Assembly (NCBI GenBank): GCA_965197475.1
Contig: CBDANF010000002.1
Span: 1,184,001 to 1,248,000, forward strand
DNA from: Candidatus Poribacteria bacterium
GTDB lineage: Bacteria; Poribacteria; WGA-4E; WGA-3G
DNA length: 64,000 nucleotides
Direction of reading: 5' to 3'
This document shows, in pieces, positions 4,206 through 45,063 of the stretch. Position numbers and translations under genes: made by a program. The notes below the pieces were generated by a model. That model worked only from the letters and a program-made list of their open reading frames with translations. It searched no databases and was not told the origin of the DNA. Numbering within the stretch: the stretch's first letter is position 1; each line of letters begins with the position of its first letter.

Positions 4206-5684
4206 TTATTGACGGGGTTCATGAAATCTGATGCTCCCGTAATAATCCCTACAACTCTGTCCGTTTCGATAGCACAACGCCCACGACTCACCGCAGATGT
4301 CCCGCACACCTGGACTCTTCAATTTACGGCGCGTACAAGGCCCCCGTGTTTGGTGCCAATAAAGCGCAGTTGTATCACACGACCAATATTCGTGGCCGTT
4401 TATACACCAAATACGATGTCTATTCGGATCCGCAACCTGCTGCGTGCAGGCACTGCGACCACAACTGAAAGTCGGGAACGTGTGCGTATGAGAACTACAC
4501 GCATAGAAACTGGTAACTGTGCAATACGCGAGACCCCCATCTTGGGTTACGCTAACAAGACAACTCGCTTGCATTGAATGCGAATTGGATTCACTTGGCG
4601 GACCACTATGATTACCACACGCATACGTTATCGGACACGCTGAACACCCGCCCGTTGTGCAGTAATCGCAATTCGGTGAGTTGTCGGTCTCCGTGATAGG
4701 GGTTGGGGACGGGTCCCCGAGATGTGCCGCTCGATAAGTGCCATACGGATCAACGGGATCATTTAAATGGGACCCCACAACTTCAAAATAATCCGAAATC
4801 TCTTCAGCACGCGACTCATGCGTGGTGCTCGAAGACCACCACGCGTTGCGATGACTAAACTCCGGATTCGTGCAAACCCGATACGGTAGGTTACAACGCG
4901 TTTCACGTACATCGTTATACCAAAACCATTTTTGGCAATTCCGAACACCATGTCTGGCAACTCCATCTGCATTACAAGTGTAATAGAAGATACCATCCCC
5001 TGGCACCGGGGAATTACGATGTACCTCTTCACTACCACACAACTCGCGATGCGTATTGTAAGCTTCACTCGGCGTGGAAAACGTGTCTGAACACGATGAA
5101 GAACCCAGACAATTGAACTCAGGCAAATCATCACGACACGTCTTCTCTTCCCAGTCCGGCACGGTATGATTGACGTTAGATGGTGAAGCATCATCATGCT
5201 GATTCGTATGATGCGAATTGACAGTCGTCTCAGCATGCTTATGTGCACTATTATACAAGGGAACTGTTATATTATAAAACCAATCTATTTCACCCTTCAG
5301 TAACTCAAGCATATCGCTATAAAGATCCATCAGGCTCAGGTTTTCATATAGTTTTGTCAATTCTTTCTCCGCATCCGACTCCAGAAAGCCCAGCAACCTG
5401 GCTGCGGTCAAGAGCGTGCCATCGCTGAGAAAGTTTGATACAGCAGTATCAAGATTTTGCGTGCGCGCCTCATCTGTCGCCTCCTCCCATTTGGCACTCA
5501 CCTTGTTTACAACTGTCCACGCATCCTGAACTTTAGCACGTTGATCTCTGACTTTCCCTTCCATACTGCTCAGATCCACTATGGCGTTGATTGGGACTAT
5601 ATCATCATTAGGGGTTGCATAACAGAAAGTAAAAACAGATAGACAGATAGCGTAAATTCCAATCGTGTAAATTGTTTTTCTCAT
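4206..5684 (-). CDS. Secreted Cys/His-rich protein (cassette A gene 3)
   Basis: Signal peptide, helical N-terminal part, Cys/His-dense C-terminal half; AGGAG RBS; paralog of 7559-9304. Confidence 0.8.
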   Translation of the reverse strand: MRKTIYTIGIYAICLSVFTFCYATPNDDIVPINAIVDLSSMEGKVRDQRAKVQDAWTVVNKVSAKWEEATDEARTQNLDTAVSNFLSDGTLLTAARLLGFLESDAEKELTKLYENLSLMDLYSDMLELLKGEIDWFYNITVPLYNSAHKHAETTVNSHHTNQHDDASPSNVNHTVPDWEEKTCRDDLPEFNCLGSSSCSDTFSTPSEAYNTHRELCGSEEVHRNSPVPGDGIFYYTCNADGVARHGVRNCQKWFWYNDVRETRCNLPYRVCTNPEFSHRNAWWSSSTTHESRAEEISDYFEVVGSHLNDPVDPYGTYRAAHLGDPSPTPITETDNSPNCDYCTTGGCSACPITYACGNHSGPPSESNSHSMQASCLVSVTQDGGLAYCTVTSFYACSSHTHTFPTFSCGRSACTQQVADPNRHRIWCINGHEYWSCDTTALYWHQTRGPCTRRKLKSPGVRDICGESWALCYRNGQSCRDYYGSIRFHEPRQ

Positions 5685-5693
5685 GGTATTCTC

Positions 5694-6422
5694 CTATTTT
5701 GGTATTGGGAAATTTGAGGACATTCTCTCGGGACGTAGATATAGGATGTACTGACCCGTGTTTCGTGTCCACCTTAACTTCCCTAAATCATTCATCCGGG
5801 CAAGTTCCCACTTATGACGTTTGAATTCCTCACTCGGAGGTGCCCTATCTTTAAATGTGAACGCATCATCTCGCGCTTCCAGCTCACGACTCTTCTCAGT
5901 ATCTGCCATTATACGCGCCTCAATATTCCTCATTGTGTTTAGGACTATGGGGTTGGCGAGGTCATTGATACTTTCATAGTATGTTATCAGATAGATGTCG
6001 CGTGCGATGGCTGCTGCCTCAGCGTCATCAGGTGGGAAGGGCGGTATCCATTTAGCACTCCAGTGTCCACGTTCTTTTGCTTGTAGACGGAGTGCTTCAA
6101 CAGGATGCGTCTCTAAGAGCTCTGTGTGGTGTGTCAATGGACCGGCAGACGTTTTCGGCACCGGAGCATATAGTGCATCGTGCCACTCATCACCGTGCCA
6201 GTGTCCGTGTGGTGAAGCCCCTGGTGGCGGTTGCCTGTCAGCAATAGTTATGGGTTGCTTCTTTACTTTCTGGTTGTCGCGAATTTTGTCTAACTCTTCA
6301 TCTGAGGACGGGTTATAGACGGTTTCCGTTTCGGTATCTTTGTCTATCAACAAGAACACACCCGCAATACCGATCAAGACGATGAGGACAATGATTCCTC
6401 TCAATATGTTCCTATTCATCAT
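5694..6422 (-). CDS. N-terminally anchored protein with HGHWHGDEWHD motif (cassette A gene 2)
   Basis: One N-terminal TM helix; AAGGAG RBS before ATG 6422; N-terminal ~40 aa shared with copy B. Confidence 0.8.
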   Translation of the reverse strand: MMNRNILRGIIVLIVLIGIAGVFLLIDKDTETETVYNPSSDEELDKIRDNQKVKKQPITIADRQPPPGASPHGHWHGDEWHDALYAPVPKTSAGPLTHHTELLETHPVEALRLQAKERGHWSAKWIPPFPPDDAEAAAIARDIYLITYYESINDLANPIVLNTMRNIEARIMADTEKSRELEARDDAFTFKDRAPPSEEFKRHKWELARMNDLGKLRWTRNTGQYILYLRPERMSSNFPIPK

Positions 6423-6858
6423 AGTTCTCCTTACTATAAAGTTGTTCACTTTGCGCTGCTGCGTTTAGCGTGCAAGGTGCTTTCTGTTGTGGACAAATCG
6501 GTTGCTGTTCCACCTTTGGACAGTCCTTCCGTGTCCATTTAAGGCAGGGGGTTGTGTCTGTCTGTGTAGCATCAATCACTTTTATTGTGCCAAACAGTAA
6601 CCCTCCACCGATACAGACAATAAGTGCCGCTGTGAGTCCTATCTTTCGTCTCCGTTGCATTTTCGGTTTCGGAGTATCCTGTTGTGTGTCCATCTGTTTT
6701 AAGGACAAGAATCCCCAAAGCGAGATAACGAGTGCAACGATACTCAGATGGATTCCGTGCTGCTCAAAAAAGAGTGCGAAGAACGAGATAGCGATGAGTC
6801 CACCGAATGCAGCCACGGCTGCGATGTCGGCATTCGCTGTTAAAAATCTTGTTTTCAC
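6412..6858 (-). CDS. Small 3-TM membrane protein (cassette A gene 1)
   Basis: Three hydrophobic segments; GGAGG RBS before GTG 6858; near-identical to copy B. Confidence 0.75.
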   Translation of the reverse strand: MKTRFLTANADIAAVAAFGGLIAISFFALFFEQHGIHLSIVALVISLWGFLSLKQMDTQQDTPKPKMQRRRKIGLTAALIVCIGGGLLFGTIKVIDATQTDTTPCLKWTRKDCPKVEQQPICPQQKAPCTLNAAAQSEQLYSKENYDE

Positions 6859-6974
6859 AATTATATAGCCTCCATTAAAATTTGTCAAATAAAACTATCT
6901 GTTATATCCTATCGTTGTGCATAGTACACGTGCGCAACAAGGATGACAAGCATTGAAACACTTTCCAATGCAAC

Positions 6975-7020
6975 AACAAAAGCCCGCGACGAGCCACTCC
7001 GTGTGAGACGAAGCGCGGGC
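6975..7020 (-). terminator. Leader intrinsic-terminator candidate, cassette A
   Basis: Minus strand GCCCGCG...CGCGGGC stem followed by TTTTGTTGTT. Confidence 0.6.
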
Positions 7021-7084
7021 GGGCGCGAAAATATCGCAGCTGCTAACATCTGCGATAAGACCTTGAAAACTAAATTGGTTAAAA

Positions 7085-7231
7085 TTAACGAATGTGAAGT
7101 GGGGGGGGGGTAGTTAACTTATAGTTAAAATATGTCAATCGACGTATACCGCGCGGACAAATCCTGCTCATGTAACAGGTGTCCGGCGTGATCATTTTTT
7201 GGATTATGGTTTTGATATGTCGGTCCCTCAT
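7085..7231 (-). CDS. 48-aa leader uORF crossing a C10 tract (MRDRHIKT...KLTTPPPLHIR)
   Basis: AAGGGGA RBS-like sequence; same length, no indels, in copy B (10700-10846). Confidence 0.55.
   Translation of the reverse strand: MRDRHIKTIIQKMITPDTCYMSRICPRGIRRLTYFNYKLTTPPPLHIR
7101..7110. repeat. G10 homopolymer (C10 on coding strand)
   Basis: Read directly; identical tract at 10716-10725. Confidence 0.95.
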
Positions 7232-7417
7232 TGTCAAATCCCCTTATGCGACAAAATATGATTAGCGGCGGTGCAACTTTCCACTTCCTCAAAAATTTCA
7301 TGTTGCACGCTCATAATATCACTACTACTCAATTTAGCGTGTCTTTCTTCCATGGGTTACAGTAAATTTGAACTTTTTTCTAAAAATTCGTAAATTTTTG
7401 TATAAATCTGAATAAAG

Positions 7418-7454
7418 AAAATGCCGTGTGTGTTGAGAATACACACGGCATTTT
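7418..7454. terminator. Terminator hairpin after cassette B
   Basis: AAAATGCCGTGTGT-N9-ACACACGGCATTTT. Confidence 0.75.
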
Positions 7455-7558
7455 GCGTGTTGGTAATTCACATTAAATTATCTCTACAAGCAATAAAATA
7501 GGCAGATACCCAATCAAGGATACCTGCCTGTTGAATTGATGTGTGCTCGCGTTCTGTG

Positions 7559-9304
7559 TTATTGACGGGGTTCATGAAATCTGATGCGCCTGTAATAATC
7601 CATACAACTCTGTCCGTTTCGATAGCACAACGCCCACGACTCACCGCAGGGTCCCCGGACACCTGGACTCTTCAATTTACGGCGCGTACAAGGCCCCCGT
7701 GTTTGGTGCCAATAAAGCGCAGTTGTATCACACGACCAATATTCGTGGCCGTTTATACACCAAATACGATGTCTATTCGGATCCGCAACCTGCTGCGTGC
7801 AGGCACTGCGACCACAACTGAAAGTCGGGAACGTGTGCGTATGAGAACTACACGCATAGAAATTGGTAACAGTGCAGGAATGCCCCCATATATTGGTTAT
7901 GGAACAACTCGCTTGCAACGCATGTGAACTGGATTGACAAGCATAGATCGTATGTCCACACCCCCAAGTTTCTGATCTATGGTCGTAGTCCGAGGATGAA
8001 CCTAGCCAATAGGTATGTCCACAGGGGCCGATGGCAGGACCACTGGTGATCGTGGTTGTTCCATGACTACTCGTCTCTGGACACTGTGCATACACACAGC
8101 CCCAATAGACGCGGTTGTTACAAGCTCCCTCGTTGCACGTATACGATACATGATAACCTGAAGTCCCCACCGCATGAATGCCACACGCATACGTTATCGG
8201 ACACGCGGAACACATGCCCGTTGTGCAATAATCACAATCCGGTGAGTTGTCTACAACAACGGGATTGGATGCCGTGCTTTCTGTACTGCTATCACCATTG
8301 TCAGAGTGCGTGCTTGCACCCGGGATATCAGGGTGATGATCAAATCTCTTGCCCATGCACCTTCTATAGAGGGTGCCACACGGACGTTTCTCCAGCGGTG
8401 CACCATAGTAATCTTCCCTTTCATATACCCATTTCGTGCAAGTCCGCCTCCGATGTTTCGCTTCATCGCTGCTACAATTGTAATACTGACGTCCACAGCC
8501 ATCCGCGGGAGAACGGATTTGAAGTATTTCTGATACGATCCTATTCAAATTTGCGACAATATCCGCTGAGTCACTCCCCGGCCCCATATAGACTCGCTCT
8601 ACCGCCTCTTCATATACATTTCTTGCTGTGCCACAGCTGACATCGTGAGGGCTATCTGGTGTGTCGAATTCCAAATTACAGCTGCCACCACACGGAAATT
8701 TGGGAAGATCTGGATGAGTGGGTTTTATGGGGGGATCCCCAGCCTTCTTCTTTGAAGTACTAGAATGCGAATTATAGTGATTTACGGCTGCGACAAGATC
8801 TCTGTATGCCTCCATTATTGAATTCGCTTCATCAGTCCCCTCAAACGTTACCGAGTTATCCCAATTCGCGTCAATATCTGATGCCAACACATTAGCCTGG
8901 CCGAGTTCATATACAATAAGGTCCTCTAACGAGTACGCTGAGTACATAGCCGTAACAATCTTTACGGTTATACCATACGCTGATGCAACCGCATCAATAA
9001 TGTTAGTTTTCGCACTACCGGTGAGTGCCGAGATTTGTTGGTTTCTAATTGAGGATTGTGTACCGAGCCATTGGCCATGAAGATACAATAACTTAGCTAC
9101 ATGTTGATCCCGCAAATCATCTAAAGCCTCAATATAATTATCCCAATCCTCCAACTCTGTATTAGCATTGTCAAAGTCGTCCTGAAGTGCTTGCCTATCT
9201 TCCGAGGAAGGATAGCCATTTATGGTGTGCGATCCTGTGTGAATAGCGGGCATAAAACTTACCAAAATGAAAAGCACTATAAGAATCGATCTTTTTGATT
9301 TCAT
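7559..9304 (-). CDS. Secreted Cys/His-rich protein (cassette B gene 3)
   Basis: Signal peptide; last ~100 aa almost identical to 4206-5684; extra Cys-rich modules. Confidence 0.8.
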   Translation of the reverse strand: MKSKRSILIVLFILVSFMPAIHTGSHTINGYPSSEDRQALQDDFDNANTELEDWDNYIEALDDLRDQHVAKLLYLHGQWLGTQSSIRNQQISALTGSAKTNIIDAVASAYGITVKIVTAMYSAYSLEDLIVYELGQANVLASDIDANWDNSVTFEGTDEANSIMEAYRDLVAAVNHYNSHSSTSKKKAGDPPIKPTHPDLPKFPCGGSCNLEFDTPDSPHDVSCGTARNVYEEAVERVYMGPGSDSADIVANLNRIVSEILQIRSPADGCGRQYYNCSSDEAKHRRRTCTKWVYEREDYYGAPLEKRPCGTLYRRCMGKRFDHHPDIPGASTHSDNGDSSTESTASNPVVVDNSPDCDYCTTGMCSACPITYACGIHAVGTSGYHVSYTCNEGACNNRVYWGCVYAQCPETSSHGTTTITSGPAIGPCGHTYWLGSSSDYDHRSETWGCGHTIYACQSSSHALQASCSITNIWGHSCTVTNFYACSSHTHTFPTFSCGRSACTQQVADPNRHRIWCINGHEYWSCDTTALYWHQTRGPCTRRKLKSPGVRGPCGESWALCYRNGQSCMDYYRRIRFHEPRQ

Positions 9305-10035
9305 CGGTTCCTCCTCTGTCGTATCACATCAAGATCTTCTTTTGACGGTAGACCTCCATATTTTTCCCGCGGATCTCCATATTTTTCAAAAGGAGAGGGA
9401 TGGTTAGACTTTGGGATGAGTGCATTGTACGGCTCAAGGAGTTTCTCCAATTCCTCAACTCTTTCAAGTGCATAACGGTTATTCGTTTTGTCTGAAGAAT
9501 AAAGATTTCGGAGTCTCCACATTGCGTTCTTAACTTCCTGTATTTCCTCCCATAATGCATGACTTCTTAGATCACCAGAATTGCGGTATTTTACATAAGT
9601 CTGCACAAGTTTTTTAACTCTATCCGTGTAAGCTTCACTGAAGACATCCTCAGGAAGTTTCAGTTCTGATGGTACCGTATTCGGTATCGCGCGTTCGCCT
9701 TTTTTGCGCCACGTGTTGTCTGGATACAACCGCCACGTGTCGTCCGTTTCAAAAGATGGTTGGTTTCCAGCATCCACGACAGCGGGATCATGGGGAGCAT
9801 CGTGCCAAGTTCCATCTGCGTGCCGATGCCCTTTTTCTCGGTTTCCTTCTGGCGACTGTGCTTTGGCTGCTTTCTGTGCTGCCAAATCCTGCCTTATCTT
9901 TTGCCACTCTTCTTCCGATGGCGGGTTATAGACGGTTTCCGTTTCGGTATCTTTGTCTATCAACAAGAACACACCCGCAATACCGAGCAGGACGATGAGG
10001 ACAACGATTCCTCTCAATATGTTCCTATTCATCAT
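9301..10035 (-). CDS. N-terminally anchored protein with GHRHADGTWHD motif (cassette B gene 2)
   Basis: TM helix; its stop overlaps the gene 3 start (ATGA). Confidence 0.8.
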   Translation of the reverse strand: MMNRNILRGIVVLIVLLGIAGVFLLIDKDTETETVYNPPSEEEWQKIRQDLAAQKAAKAQSPEGNREKGHRHADGTWHDAPHDPAVVDAGNQPSFETDDTWRLYPDNTWRKKGERAIPNTVPSELKLPEDVFSEAYTDRVKKLVQTYVKYRNSGDLRSHALWEEIQEVKNAMWRLRNLYSSDKTNNRYALERVEELEKLLEPYNALIPKSNHPSPFEKYGDPREKYGGLPSKEDLDVIRQRRNR

Positions 10036-10471
10036 AGTTCTCCTTACTATAAAGTTGTTCACTTTGCGCCGCTGCGTTCAGCGGACAAGGTGCTTTCTGT
10101 TGTGGACAAATCGGTTGCTGTTCCACTTTTGGACAGTCCTTCTGTGTCCATTCAGGGCAAGGGGTTGTGTCTGTCTGTGTAGCATCAATCATTTTTATTG
10201 TGCCAAACAGTAACCCGCCGCCGATACAGACAATAAGTGCCGCTGTGAGTCCTATCTTTCGCCTACGTTGCTTTTTCGGTTTCGGGGTGTCCTGTTGTGT
10301 GTCCATCTGTTTTAAGGACAAGAATCCCCAGCACGAGATCGTGAGTGCAACGATACTCAGATGGATTCCGTGCTGCTCAAAAAAGAGTGCGAAGTACGAG
10401 ATAGCGGTGAGTCCACCGAATGCAGCCACGGCTGCGATGTCGGCATTCGCTGTAAAAAATCTTGTTTTCAC
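10025..10471 (-). CDS. Small 3-TM membrane protein (cassette B gene 1)
   Basis: Paralog of 6412-6858; GGAGG RBS. Confidence 0.75.
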   Translation of the reverse strand: MKTRFFTANADIAAVAAFGGLTAISYFALFFEQHGIHLSIVALTISCWGFLSLKQMDTQQDTPKPKKQRRRKIGLTAALIVCIGGGLLFGTIKMIDATQTDTTPCPEWTQKDCPKVEQQPICPQQKAPCPLNAAAQSEQLYSKENYDE

Positions 10472-10587
10472 AATTATATATCCTCCATTAAAATTTGTCA
10501 AGTAAAACTATCTGTTATATCCTATCGTTGTGCATAGTACACGTGCACAACAAGGATGACAAGCATTGAAACACTTTCCAATGCAAC

Positions 10588-10639
10588 AACAAAAGCCCGC
10601 GACGAGACACTCCGTGTGAAACGAAGCGCGCGTGCGGGC
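10588..10639 (-). terminator. Leader intrinsic-terminator candidate, cassette B
   Basis: Minus strand GCCCGCACG...CGTCGCGGGC followed by TTTTGTTGTT. Confidence 0.55.
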
Positions 10640-10699
10640 GCGAAAATATCGCAGCTGCTAACATCTGCGATAAGACCTTGAAAACTAAATTGGTTAAAA

Positions 10700-10846
10700 T
10701 TAACGAATGTGAAGTGGGGGGGGGGTAGTTAACTTATAGTTAAAATATGTCAACCGACGTATGCCGCATAGACAAACCCTGCTCAGGTAACAGGTGTCCG
10801 GCGCGATTATTTTTTGGCTTGTGGTTTTGATATGTCGGCCCCTCAT
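10700..10846 (-). CDS. 48-aa leader uORF crossing a C10 tract (MRGRHIKT...KLTTPPPLHIR)
   Basis: Co-linear with 7085-7231. Confidence 0.55.
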   Translation of the reverse strand: MRGRHIKTTSQKIIAPDTCYLSRVCLCGIRRLTYFNYKLTTPPPLHIR

Positions 10847-11029
10847 TGCCAAATCCCCTTATGCGAAAAAATACGGTTTGCGGCGGTGCAACTTTCCACT
10901 TCCCAGAATTTCTATGTTGCACGCGGATATTATCCATAACTAAACCTAATTACGTGTGTATTGCCTCCTAAGTTACAGTAAATACGAACTTTTTCAAAAA
11001 TCGTAAAATTTAAGTTTTAAAATTGTCGC

Positions 11030-11059
11030 TTGACTTTTTTCTGCAATTTATGCTAAACT
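11030..11059 (+). promoter_or_regulatory. Sigma70-type promoter candidate
   Basis: TTGACT-N18-TAAACT with extended TG. Confidence 0.5.
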
Positions 11060-11243
11060 TTTGAAATAAGCAGGTTGTGCGCTGAACTCAATGATTTGTT
11101 GGCAGACATAAGGGTTTTGCCCTCCGTCTAAAGGACGCAGTACATGCACAGAGGTTCTGTGACGGACTCACCTGCAAACCCTTGTGAATACAAGTGGCAA
11201 TAAAGATTTGACAAAAGTTTAATCAAGGAGGCTTATCTCTATC

Positions 11244-12017
11244 ATGCGTTTTTTTAGTTTTTTATTCATACCCATTTTCCTCGTTTCAATCGTTGGATGT
11301 TTTGGAGACGGTGAGGTTAATATTAAAACTCCGCCATCTTTTAGCGAGGTGAAAAAAGTTGTTATCACGCCTTTTATTACTGAAGATGAATCGAAGGAGA
11401 CACAGGAACTTGGCAAGCGACTTAGCGTCAATTTGGCAAACCGTTTTGAGCTTATTTTTAAAGACCTTGGATGGGTTTTTGACATATCGGAGAAAGTTCG
11501 CCCGGTAGGCGAAAAAGTTGAGGAGCTCGGATTAACATTAAATGATGTTTACACAGATCCAGCCTTGGCGGCTAAAGCAGGTCAGGCACTTGATGCGGAC
11601 ATGATCATCACAGGGATGGTTTTGACCCCTAAACTCCGCCGTAAGGATAGCGATGAACATCTCATGCGTCAAGGCAGACAAACTGGAATTTCAGGAACAT
11701 CTACCTATATCACAACCCGGCAGGATGCAATCGGTGGAGTACGTGTCAAGGTTATTCATGTAGCATCAGGCAAAATTCTCTATAACAATAAGATTAGTTC
11801 TTTTCTCAAGTATTGGTTTGCCTATCAAACGCAGCAGAGTGGCCAAGTTGTTTTTAAAGAGGAAGTGGAGATGCTTGCTGATTTAGGAAAACAGTTACCA
11901 CTCCGAATTTCGTATATGCTTTACCCAAGTGGACTGAAAAGGGATCCTGAAGAAAAGGTTTTGCTGAAACCAGATCTCATTCTCAAAGGCACATCCGGCA
12001 TATTTAAATTCGATTAG
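11244..12017 (+). CDS. Lipoprotein (CsgG/LpoB-like fold suspected)
   Basis: Lipobox IVGC; AAGGAGG RBS; alpha/beta pattern ALDADMIITG. Confidence 0.7.
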   Translation: MRFFSFLFIPIFLVSIVGCFGDGEVNIKTPPSFSEVKKVVITPFITEDESKETQELGKRLSVNLANRFELIFKDLGWVFDISEKVRPVGEKVEELGLTLNDVYTDPALAAKAGQALDADMIITGMVLTPKLRRKDSDEHLMRQGRQTGISGTSTYITTRQDAIGGVRVKVIHVASGKILYNNKISSFLKYWFAYQTQQSGQVVFKEEVEMLADLGKQLPLRISYMLYPSGLKRDPEEKVLLKPDLILKGTSGIFKFD

Positions 12018-43275: not shown

Positions 43276-43701
43276 ATACATTGATATGATTCAATCAATG
43301 GATCAAACATTCGGTCCCGACACAAAAGGATGTCAAATTCCTGCCAACACTTTCAGACGGACCCCAAAAACAAACCCAAATTCTGCTTTCTGTCAGACAG
43401 GTACCCTCCAAAACATATCGGATGCAACTGCTGGCTGTTGTTTGCCCACGGGGCACGATGAAAATTTGCCCTACGATGTATAATACGTTCCAAAAATACA
43501 TTTTTATTCAATTTTATATTTACTCCGGCATCATAGACCGGGATATCTTTACTATATTGAGACAGTTCGCAGCATCTTGCGATTTCTGTCAGATTCACAA
43601 GTATTCACCTGATTCTGTTTTTTATATTTCGCGTTGACGTAGCAATGTTTGCGCACCAAAAATCTCAAATGGAGACAGGTATTACTGAGGAGTATGAAAC
43701 T

Positions 43702-45063
43702 ATGGAGAGCTTGGAAATAGGCAAGCTCCAAGAAATGGAGATTTCAGCCCTAAATACCCTGGCACAATCCTACGGTATTGAAGACAGTAATGGATTACAG
43801 ATACAGAAGGATGAACTCATTACTCGGATTCTTGAACAGGCCACTGAACAAAATATACCTCTTTATGGAAAAGGGGTGTTGCAGATTTTAGATGGCCGAG
43901 ATCAGAACTACGGTTTTCTTAGGTCTCCGCGTTCTAATTATTTGCAGAGTGATGAAGATATTTATGTTTCTCATTCACAAATACGTTTGTTTGGTTTGCA
44001 AACCGGACATGTTGTTGAAGGTTTGATCCGTCCTCCTAAGAAACCGGAGAACAAAATAGAACATAAGAAACCGGAGAACAAAACAGAACGTTACTATGCT
44101 TTGTTACAGATTGAGAAAGTCAACGGTCAACCACCGGAATTAGTTAAGGCCAGAATCCCCTTTGACAGTCCAATGCCGGTTTTTCCCTATGAACAGTTTA
44201 AACTTGAACACAAACCCTCCGAATTCGGTACGCGTATTATTGACCTCATAGCACCCATCGGTAAAGGACAGCGAGGTTTAATTGTTGCACCACCTTATTG
44301 TGGAAAAACAACCTTACTCAAAAATATCGCCTGCGGTATTGAATCGAATCATCCGGAAACTTCACTCATCTTTTTACTAATTGATGAACGACCAGAAGAG
44401 GTTACCGATGTTATCCGGACGGTTAAAGGTGAAGTCATCAGTTCTACCTTTGACGAACCCCCCGAACGACACATACAGGTTTCAGATATGGCACTCGAAA
44501 AAGCCAAACGCATGGTTGAATGCGGGCAAGATGTTGTGATCTTACTTGACAGTATGACTCGTCTTGCAAGGGCACACAATATAACAACACCACACAGTGG
44601 GAAAACCCTTACGGGTGGGTTAGATGCTATGGCGTTTGTGAAACCCCGCCGATTCTGCGGTGCTGCACGCAAGTTTGAGGAGGGTGGAAGCTTAACGATT
44701 ATTGCTTCTGTTCTTGTTGATACTGAAAGCCGATCCGATACTTACATCTATGAGGAATTCAAAGGTACAGCCAACATGGAAATCCACATGGATCGTACTT
44801 TGTTAGAACTACAGATTTTTCCAGCCATCAACATTGGAAAATCAAGAACCCGTCGTGAAGAACTGTTGTTAAAACCTGATGTCCTTAACATGGTTTGGGC
44901 TTTGCGAAAGTTCACAAGCCCGATGAGTCCAGCTGAATCAATGCAACTTTTAATTAAAGAGTTCGGCAAGACTGAGACGAATGAGGAATTTCTTAAAAAT
45001 ATGGTCGAAGATGCTGGACAAACAGGAAAACAGCGTTCACAATCATCCAGAGCTGGAAAATGA
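43702..45063 (+). CDS. rho: Transcription termination factor Rho
   Basis: [38 protein letters not shown]. Confidence 0.97.

Follow-up and report, generated by a model that had tools for sequence, protein, structure and literature searches.

Homopolymer contingency loci are well known in Neisseria, Haemophilus and Campylobacter. In the pyrBI operon of Escherichia coli, a leader open reading frame (ORF) always spans the attenuator, and the signal is a pausing that is sensitive to uridine triphosphate (UTP). A G-tract switch of pilus genes in Bifidobacterium is described as homopolymer phase variation (PMC9187656). Ribosomes which have lost their frame in the leader ORF of ermC continue to translate and thereby open up the mRNA downstream (PMC5009743). 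E. coli terminators which lie close behind a translated ORF, or late in it, are repressed, and their efficiency rises with the distance from the stop codon (PMC4824070). Elongation factor P (EF-P) maintains the coupling of transcription and translation at polyproline (PMC5021804). The leader that we describe here has component parts which are all known: contingency tracts, leader-ORF attenuation and frameshift-extended leader translation. It is found in a stretch of 64,000 nucleotides (nt) of a Candidatus Poribacteria bacterium (assembly GCA_965197475.1, contig CBDANF010000002.1, positions 1,184,001 to 1,248,000), which we call the window. All coordinates are those of this whole stretch unless another contig is named.

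The same leader is found in about 100 copies, distributed over 28 of 40 genomes of the genus. Its ORF runs through a tract of C residues and stops just past it, while the other two frames are usually open to the end of an intrinsic terminator. We propose that it is a frame-dependent transcription attenuator, in which the frame after the tract would decide termination, a proposal on which we are evenly divided. The leader shown here (copy A) and the genes downstream of it are all read on the minus strand. Its parts are listed below in the direction of transcription; frame 0 is the canonical frame of the leader ORF.

7399-7244, minus strand: conserved stretch upstream of the leader ORF.
7337-7361, minus strand: TGTAAC-N16-CGC motif, a candidate leader promoter of the extracytoplasmic function (ECF) type, from an alignment of the long copies in this genome.
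7240-7243, minus strand: GGGG, a G-rich run similar to a Shine-Dalgarno sequence, 8 nt ahead of the ATG of the leader ORF (from the sequence).
7085-7231, minus strand: leader ORF, 48 codons plus TAA (ATG at 7231, TAA at 7087-7085), peptide end FNYKL-TT-PPP-LHIR.
7114-7128, minus strand: palindrome TTAACTATAAGTTAA, 3 nt upstream of the C tract, conserved at the nucleotide level.
7101-7110, minus strand: C10 tract, forming the Pro codons of the leader ORF, the proposed frame switch.
7084-7098, minus strand: motif TTCACATTCGTTAAT, which begins 2 nt past the C tract, near-invariant as nucleotides, containing the frame-0 TAA at 7087-7085.
7043-7081, minus strand: three more stop triplets in frame 0 (7081-7079, 7072-7070 and 7045-7043), none in the other two frames.
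7032-7057, minus strand: hairpin 1, arms TATCGCAG and CTGCGATA, followed by a U-rich stretch (folding and RNAalifold).
6971-7024, minus strand: intrinsic terminator, a long hairpin with base stem GCCCGC / GCGGGC, then TTTTGTTGTTG (terminator scan, folding and covariation).
6950-6971, minus strand: hairpin 3, GCATTG / CAATGC, directly past the U-run (alignments, by eye).
6893-6911, minus strand: three stop triplets 7 nt apart, which close all three frames.
6860-6888, minus strand: perfect sigma-70 consensus TTGACA-17-TATAAT over the ribosome-binding site (RBS) of gene 1 (GGAGG, 6873-6869), scoring 12/12 in a promoter scan.

A preliminary description of this leader, made from the letters of the window, had pointed out most of this anatomy, and all the coordinates that it gave agree with the sequence. 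A leader ORF of 48 codons running through C10, with its stop just past the tract, is exact in both copies present in the window. The four stops after the tract (lowest coordinates 7085, 7079, 7070 and 7043) lie in the frame of the leader ORF, as had been noted; no stop triplet is found in any frame between 7043 and 6909, and the stops at 6909, 6902 and 6895 sit in three different frames. With C9, the leader ORF of copy A would extend to 111 codons (its stop ends at 6895), and with C11 to 107 codons (6909). The leader ORF of copy B also has 48 codons, and one C fewer or more gives 107 or 110 codons, despite a 2 nt insertion inside the terminator. In a script check, every one-C extension of either copy passes through the terminator. 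The GC-rich hairpin with its U-run was recovered by terminator scan, folding and covariation.

In order to see how this leader is distributed, we have searched the genome from which the window comes (G000, 5.7 Mb, three contigs) with a leader query of 541 nt. Fifteen of the 16 matches are real copies: nine long ones, which end just past the U-run, three partial ones with the tract, and three which have the module of hairpin 1 and terminator only. The DNA search also finds the leader in 19 of 24 other genomes of the genus, and gives no match in 16 genomes belonging to three further families of the order. The matches in the 28 of 40 genomes mentioned above come from a peptide profile built on 16 sequences (alignment A2). 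When genomes are drawn from the whole phylum, matches are found in 24 of 39 in the genus, in the one genome of a sister genus (1/1) and in none of 65 from the largest other genus, with one weak match elsewhere. As far as these searches go, the attenuator-like leader is a lineage-specific family in Candidatus Poribacteria.

Instances were gathered with an nhmmer profile, and 98-99 distinct ones were kept; matches were dropped unless they spanned model positions from at most 70 to at least 270. Start codons were chosen by scoring the candidates against the peptide profile. Seven of 98 instances without a recognisable tract were left out, which leaves 91. From these, 19 with a weak peptide score or a short distance from start to tract were left out of the count of stops within the leader ORF, leaving 72, and five whose U-run was missed by the pattern were left out of the frame counts, leaving 86. 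Alignment A3 holds 86 of the 91; five divergent and some short sequences are not included.

The preliminary description had suggested a genome-wide search for the leader together with a test of stop-frame bias. A multi-copy family is found, and the bias is strong: between the end of the tract and the end of the U-run (110 nt on average), the 86 instances have 208 stops in the canonical frame, vs 10 and 17 in the two alternative ones. The instances are related by descent, and neither these stop counts nor the shuffles given below are independent trials. The following 100 nt serve as an internal control, with 135, 100 and 127 stops in the three frames. One frame with an early stop, together with two frames open to the end of the U-run, is found in 67 of 91 instances, compared with 16% of trials with dinucleotide shuffles. 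Of the 86 instances, 68 have two alternative frames that remain open beyond the U-run, and every one has at least one such frame. The number of frame-0 stops varies from 1 to 6 per copy, as does their position, and indels (insertions or deletions) inside this segment differ between copies, so the frame pattern is actively kept and not simply inherited.

The frames which the copies actually occupy follow the same pattern. Among the 98 instances, 58 stop within 30 nt of the tract, nearly all of them with a peptide ending in xHIR, YIR or HIC, 29 are out of the canonical frame and read on, three stop early, one has no tract but keeps the frame, and seven could not be parsed. Out-of-frame copies number 28 in the set of 86, and 26 of them read past the U-run. 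In the genome of the window, L004 and L008 are in frame like the two window copies, and L005 and L007 are out of frame. Copies in frame stop 47-102 nt (median 81) ahead of the 3' arm of the terminator. An extension of the leader ORF through the terminator, which is the criterion for a leader of the pyrBI type, is absent in the canonical frame and present in the +/-1 frames. We have also considered the idea that copies with a short tract had lost their open alternative frames, and have rejected it: 16 of 23 keep both, vs 52 of 63, a slight difference which does not discriminate.

Upstream of the tract the situation is inverted. The 72 instances counted here match the peptide profile with confidence and have 90 nt or more from start to tract. 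Their stop triplets between start and tract number 1, 264 and 260, the frame of the leader ORF being the first, and this frame is open in at least 71 of them. The start codon is ATG in 61 cases, GTG in nine and TTG in two, and most have a G-rich run 6-10 nt upstream. Alignments show that single-base indels between lineages are compensated and that the frame survives. Judged by these counts, the leader ORF is under strong selection to stay open. The median ratio of non-synonymous to synonymous substitution rates (dN/dS) is 0.66 (780 pairs of 46 ORFs), which means that the peptide is weakly constrained. Translation would therefore count more than the peptide, as one expects of a leader ORF with a regulatory role. 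Near its end there is a conserved series of three to five consecutive Pro codons.

This absence of stops in one specific frame, over about 116 nt, bears on a quite different explanation, that the leader is a repeat without coding function, either a small RNA gene or a miniature mobile element, with the hairpin and terminator module as its 3' end. Its multi-copy nature would agree with this, and so would the occurrence of the 3' module alone, directly behind TTGACA-17-TATAAG, in three loci; by a loose analogy, the C-rich stretch might act as an anti-Shine-Dalgarno seed. Apart from the frame-specific lack of stops, this explanation has against it the fixed orientation relative to the downstream gene and the lack of an Rfam family: a scan of positions 5000-12000 on both strands, with a permissive E-value, gives chance-level matches only, none near the gathering score. 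Terminal inverted repeats were not seen, no formal search having been made. We consider this explanation extremely improbable.

The three loci in question are L013, L014 and L015 (G000 C2:57636, C2:59655 and C3:838081). They have hairpin 1, the terminator and hairpin 3, without leader ORF or tract, and their module may be a stand-alone small RNA or another kind of leader.

From the tract to 150 nt downstream, RNAalifold finds hairpin 1 and the base stem of the terminator in 86 sequences. Four of the five pairs of hairpin 1 have double compensatory changes, as well as three of the six pairs of the base stem, and folding of the single sequence also yields both hairpins. The arms of hairpin 3 are changed yet still complementary in other copies, as judged by eye in the alignments, without a count. 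The terminator is the most conserved part of the whole leader family, with an apical hairpin part which varies in length or is missing. Hairpin 1 and its U-rich stretch may be a pause site which synchronises ribosome and polymerase. We have rejected a long-range pairing between the start region of the leader ORF and the motif after the tract: its duplex energy is -6.1, compared with -5.3 for shuffled partners (standard deviation 2.4). A peculiar case is L006 (G000 C2, about 611,450-611,560), with three TTAGGGGGG units just past the terminator and a matching C-rich stretch nearby. Here the homologue of gene 1 starts 210 nt past the terminator, vs about 100 nt usually.

The consensus fold of 68 whole leaders has only hairpin 1 and the terminator: there is no conserved structure in the leader ORF, and no antiterminator. 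This is relevant for the possibility of a proline-sensing leader attenuator of the mgtP type, where stalling on the Pro codons, caused by low Pro-tRNA or EF-P activity, would alter the folding, and variation of the tract would be incidental. Both the conserved run of three to five Pro codons and the rarity of CCC fit such a sensor, which has a precedent in the mgtCBR leader of Salmonella (PMC3641672), and EF-P keeps transcription and translation coupled at polyproline (PMC5021804). Besides the missing antiterminator pairing, the stall site would be about 100 nt from the terminator, and the downstream genes are unrelated to proline or Mg. This possibility also leaves without reason both the 208/10/17 stop bias and the read-through of the terminator by 26 of 28 out-of-frame copies. 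For us it is very unlikely.

In the tract itself, pure C runs of 3-34 nt are found across copies, with at least 8 nt in 63 of 86 instances. In 13 pairs of copies with 80 nt flanks at least 95% identical, which are paralogues and species, not cells of one population, the length differs in eight, by 1 to 6 bases. Such runs are scarce in the genome of the window (43% G+C), which has only 15 C or G runs of at least 8 nt: nine are in the leader family and three in a second repeat family. All nine runs of at least 10 nt fall in one of these two families. On this evidence the tract is hypermutable and maintained. Genomic copies occupy both alternative frames. In the Logan contigs from three runs of one study, this stretch is found in short pieces broken at the tract. 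One run has minor contigs which are 1-2 bases shorter in the tract; they may be paralogues. The one RNA run gave no piece of this stretch. None of these contigs has weight for or against expression or heterogeneity.

The second repeat family has three copies in G000, at C2:777897 (G31), C2:1312654 (C16) and C3:1663561 (C13), with near-identical flanks and a hypervariable G tract of 13, 16 or 31 nt. A TGTAAC-N17-CGT motif precedes the G tract by 9-11 nt, and an ORF of 17 codons has its ATG 7 nt past the tract.

The TTAACTATAAGTTAA palindrome and the TTCACATTCGTTAAT motif, next to the tract of the leader family, are conserved across species more as nucleotides than as encoded amino acids: changes in the tract flanks are mostly of the non-synonymous type, with fixed third codon positions. 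They may serve to stimulate slippage or to bind a protein. A hairpin with five of five positions paired is found 0-7 nt from the tract in 76 of 91 instances, vs 560 of 1820 shuffles, with few compensatory changes. CCC is the rarest Pro codon in this genome (15%), which has the GGG and UGG Pro-tRNAs and EF-P. A C run which encodes Pro is also an ideal ribosomal slip site.

These observations allow us to propose a mechanism. Transcription would start upstream of the leader ORF, and ribosomes would translate this ORF through the hypermutable poly-C (Pro) tract. With C10, as assembled, the ribosome would meet the cluster of stops 13-55 nt past the tract. It would then leave the RNA, when in frame, a median of 81 nt before the 3' arm of the terminator and the U-run. 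Behind the uncoupled RNA polymerase, hairpin 1 and the terminator hairpin would form and transcription would end, an OFF or low state. If the tract has gained or lost one base, the ribosome would follow the polymerase through hairpin 1 and the terminator and block the formation of the hairpin. With the terminator suppressed, transcription would continue into the downstream operon of membrane or secreted proteins (ON). The model thus predicts that transcription terminates at the hairpin, that a ribosome translating through it suppresses this, and that the ON and OFF states are as assigned here. The preliminary description had already read the leader as an attenuator controlled by slippage. Its anatomy is now found in about 90 diverged copies from 28 genomes, and changes of tract length do occur in DNA, while the termination and read-through that it postulated are inferred only.

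The source of the frame change is a separate matter. A heritable slipped-strand change may be the main one, over slippage of RNA polymerase or ribosome. In this case the leader would be a contingency locus of a new class, in which heritable +/-1 slippage of poly-C in the leader ORF switches intact operons on through terminator read-through, in 10-15 operons for secreted or membrane proteins per genome. We advance this only tentatively, with a confidence somewhat short of even.

The frame could also change without mutation, in the same attenuator. This might come about by slippage of RNA polymerase in the C run, or by a ribosome which stalls on PPP(P) and then shifts by +1 or -1 on CCC_CCC_C. 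Read-through would then be graded, and possibly dependent on EF-P or tRNA-Pro, instead of a heritable switch. C runs of at least 10 nt are longer than the RNA-DNA hybrid. The palindrome 3 nt upstream of the run is reminiscent of the stem-loops which stimulate slippage; upstream stem-loops reportedly do so in transcription, as Penno et al. are said to have found in 2015. The rare CCC codon, the two Pro-tRNAs and the presence of EF-P suit a ribosomal slip as well. Shifts of +1 at CCC-C dependent on m1G37 and EF-P are described, and drug-induced frameshifting in the ermC leader extends translation. On the other side, a ribosomal shift needs one direction only, while both alternative frames are kept open (68/86) and both are used, which agrees better with indels in DNA or RNA than with a ribosomal shift in a single direction. 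Genomic copies are found in both alternative frames, so the change at the DNA level is real, and open frames are about equally frequent whether the tract is short or interrupted or not (16/23 vs 52/63). A change of frame without mutation is unlikely in our opinion.

We have next to consider where transcription starts. A 12-of-12 sigma-70 promoter is present within 200 nt upstream of the start of the leader ORF in 23 of 73 instances, and an 11-of-12 promoter in five more; among 730 shuffled sequences, none scores 12 and seven score 11. These perfect promoters indicate that the ORF lies in a 5' leader. According to the alignment, both copies in the window share the TGTAAC-N16-CGC motif upstream of the leader; we suspect, from its presumed resemblance to promoters of ECF sigma factors, that it plays this role in copy A and its companion. 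The preliminary description had worried that a TTGACA inside the leader ORF might start transcription. This worry seems unfounded: other copies have TTGGCA or TTGGCG, no -10 partner is listed, and we have rejected TTGACA 7137-7132 as a promoter, with no -10 at 16-18 nt and a motif which is not conserved. A plus-strand promoter with the G tract as spacer was also rejected, with no acceptable -35 by eye.

The perfect consensus just before gene 1 requires a different discussion. It is conserved in the paralogous cassettes L004, L005 and L007-L009, and similar ones are found in other genomes. It would agree with an explanation in which the leader is an independent gene for a small protein (about 48 amino acids, basic, Cys-containing, with a polyproline C-terminus) that has its own terminator, the operon is transcribed from a separate promoter, and the out-of-frame copies are decaying genes or assembly errors. 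Such a gene would also account for a conserved ORF with start and RBS, for the two thirds of copies which are in frame and end in xHIR-stop, and for a unit that ends in a good terminator. However, the GGAGG of gene 1 lies within the spacer of the consensus, and the consensus itself ends 1 nt short of the GTG. A transcript from it would thus have neither this start nor the RBS, although it could still serve genes 2 and 3. A dN/dS of 0.66 and a conservation around the tract at the level of nucleotides rather than amino acids are not what a protein gene would suggest. Alternative frames free of stops exactly up to the terminator are unlike a decaying gene; a same-strand gene is always next to the unit, and the peptide has no Pfam family. 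An independent small-protein gene is distinctly unlikely, in our view.

Several observations weigh against a frame-dependent attenuator which switches by slippage. The hairpin and terminator module exists without leader ORF or tract in L013-L015. In 18 of 86 instances, only one of the two alternative frames stays open as far as the end of the U-run. About two thirds of the copies are in frame 0 (58/98 in one count, 55/86 in the other), where one third would be expected from free switching; the in-frame state must be favoured in some way. Three copies in the genome of the window, 5-10% divergent, all keep C10: either the tract is stable on some timescales, or selection acts for frame 0. For single copies, errors in homopolymer length are possible in metagenome assemblies. 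The model gives no reason for the conservation of the TTAACTATAAGTTAA palindrome and the TTCACATTCGTTAAT motif as nucleotides. Upstream of the leader ORF, the window copies have no good sigma-70 promoter, the best one scoring 8/12. Finally, the perfect sigma-70 consensus directly on the RBS of gene 1, which the preliminary description did not weigh, could make part of the transcription of the operon independent of the leader, or block read-through.

The second copy in the window and the genes downstream of both leaders are as follows.

10700-10846, minus strand: leader ORF of copy B, 48 codons, ATG at 10846, C10 at 10725-10716.
10584-10672, minus strand: hairpin 1 and terminator of copy B, with a 2 nt insertion compared with copy A (coordinates derived from offsets).
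10473-10501, minus strand: perfect sigma-70 consensus of copy B over the RBS of gene 1B (promoter scan).
7559-10471, minus strand: operon of copy B, genes 1B, 2B (9301-10035) and 3B (7559-9304).
6412-6858, minus strand: gene 1, membrane protein of 148 amino acids with a Cys-rich tail, no Pfam family, start GTG at 6858.
5694-6422, minus strand: gene 2, 242 amino acids, N-terminal membrane anchor, His-rich stretch, no Pfam family.
4206-5684, minus strand: gene 3, secreted Cys-rich protein of 492 amino acids, no Pfam family.

The start of gene 1 is probably this GTG, as suggested by the RBS spacing and by conserved N-termini. The region 4206-11011 of the minus strand is a tandem duplication of the entire cassette. 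The leader of copy B is about 90% identical to that of copy A; the two cassettes have an identity of 90-95% through the leader, gene 1 and about 40 codons at the start of gene 2. The remainder of gene 2 is unrelated, and the third genes (3 and 3B) have nothing in common but a Cys-rich domain at the C-terminus. The copy B operon ends in a clean intrinsic terminator (stem-loop and T-run, 7415-7450, minus strand), just upstream of the copy A leader, so the two cassettes are separate transcription units. In the loci examined, a same-strand gene begins 40-250 nt past the terminator. The first downstream proteins of these loci have an N-terminal membrane anchor or a signal peptide, and belong to several unrelated families.

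No Pfam family was found for genes 1-3 of either cassette or for the leader ORF. The product of gene 3B, a secreted Cys-rich protein of 581 amino acids, has no usable match in the ESM Atlas, and the gene 1 query finds no relative in a related-locus search of genome contigs. Two other genes may be mentioned. The window encodes the transcription termination factor Rho at 43645-45063, plus strand (NCBIfam, over the cut-off); its closest relatives, 80-86% identical, are from metagenome-assembled genomes of Candidatus Poribacteria, symbionts of sponges. An EF-P gene is found about 35 kb upstream of the window (G000 C2:1148793-1149338).

This leader device appears to be restricted to one genus of uncultured symbionts, and its function is predicted from sequences. 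The preliminary description knew of no case where homopolymer phase variation is coupled to attenuation, and we have found no description of one in the open-access literature that we searched. If the proposal is right, it would join homopolymer phase variation and ribosome-mediated attenuation, two textbook mechanisms which are treated apart. Contingency tracts would have a third site of action, after coding regions and promoters, with the regulated genes intact. Surface variation would be combinatorial and reversible without truncating any structural gene. The many lineage-specific secreted proteins of Poribacteria, organisms which are not culturable, would also receive a proposed regulatory logic for the first time, and the switch, being compact and portable, would be amenable to reporters in E. 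coli.

We may now compare this leader with the known systems. As in pyrBI, a short leader ORF and an intrinsic terminator lie ahead of structural genes, and a close ribosome would suppress termination. Unlike pyrBI, the canonical frame of the Poribacteria leader stops about 81 nt early and the terminator is spanned in the +/-1 frames alone; the reading frame would thus be the signal. The likeness to contingency loci lies in a hypermutable homopolymer ahead of genes for surface or secreted proteins, with many loci per genome. Known contingency tracts are located in the structural gene, where a frameshift truncates the product, or in the promoter, whereas the Poribacteria tract belongs to a leader ORF apart from these genes; its effect would be exerted by way of a terminator, and the structural genes would stay intact.

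The mgtP ORF in the Salmonella mgtCBR leader also has consecutive Pro codons in a translated leader ORF of a transcription attenuator (PMC3641672). It senses Pro-tRNA through alternative stem-loops, whereas none have been found in the Poribacteria leader, whose Pro codons are a slippery C run of variable length. In the flagellar switch of Clostridioides difficile, phase variation also takes place after initiation, through premature termination in a 5' leader (PMC7446863). There, a recombinase inverts the DNA and termination depends on Rho; in Poribacteria, homopolymer slippage and an intrinsic terminator would have these roles. In ermC, as proposed here, a change of frame in the leader ORF takes ribosomes past the normal stop, unfolds the RNA and turns the downstream gene on (PMC5009743). 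The ermC leader differs in that it acts on translation initiation, through a sequestered RBS, and in that the frame change is ribosomal and induced by a drug, a ketolide. In the Poribacteria leader, the target would be a transcription terminator, the shift site would be a homopolymer whose length varies at the DNA level, and two alternative frames are kept open.

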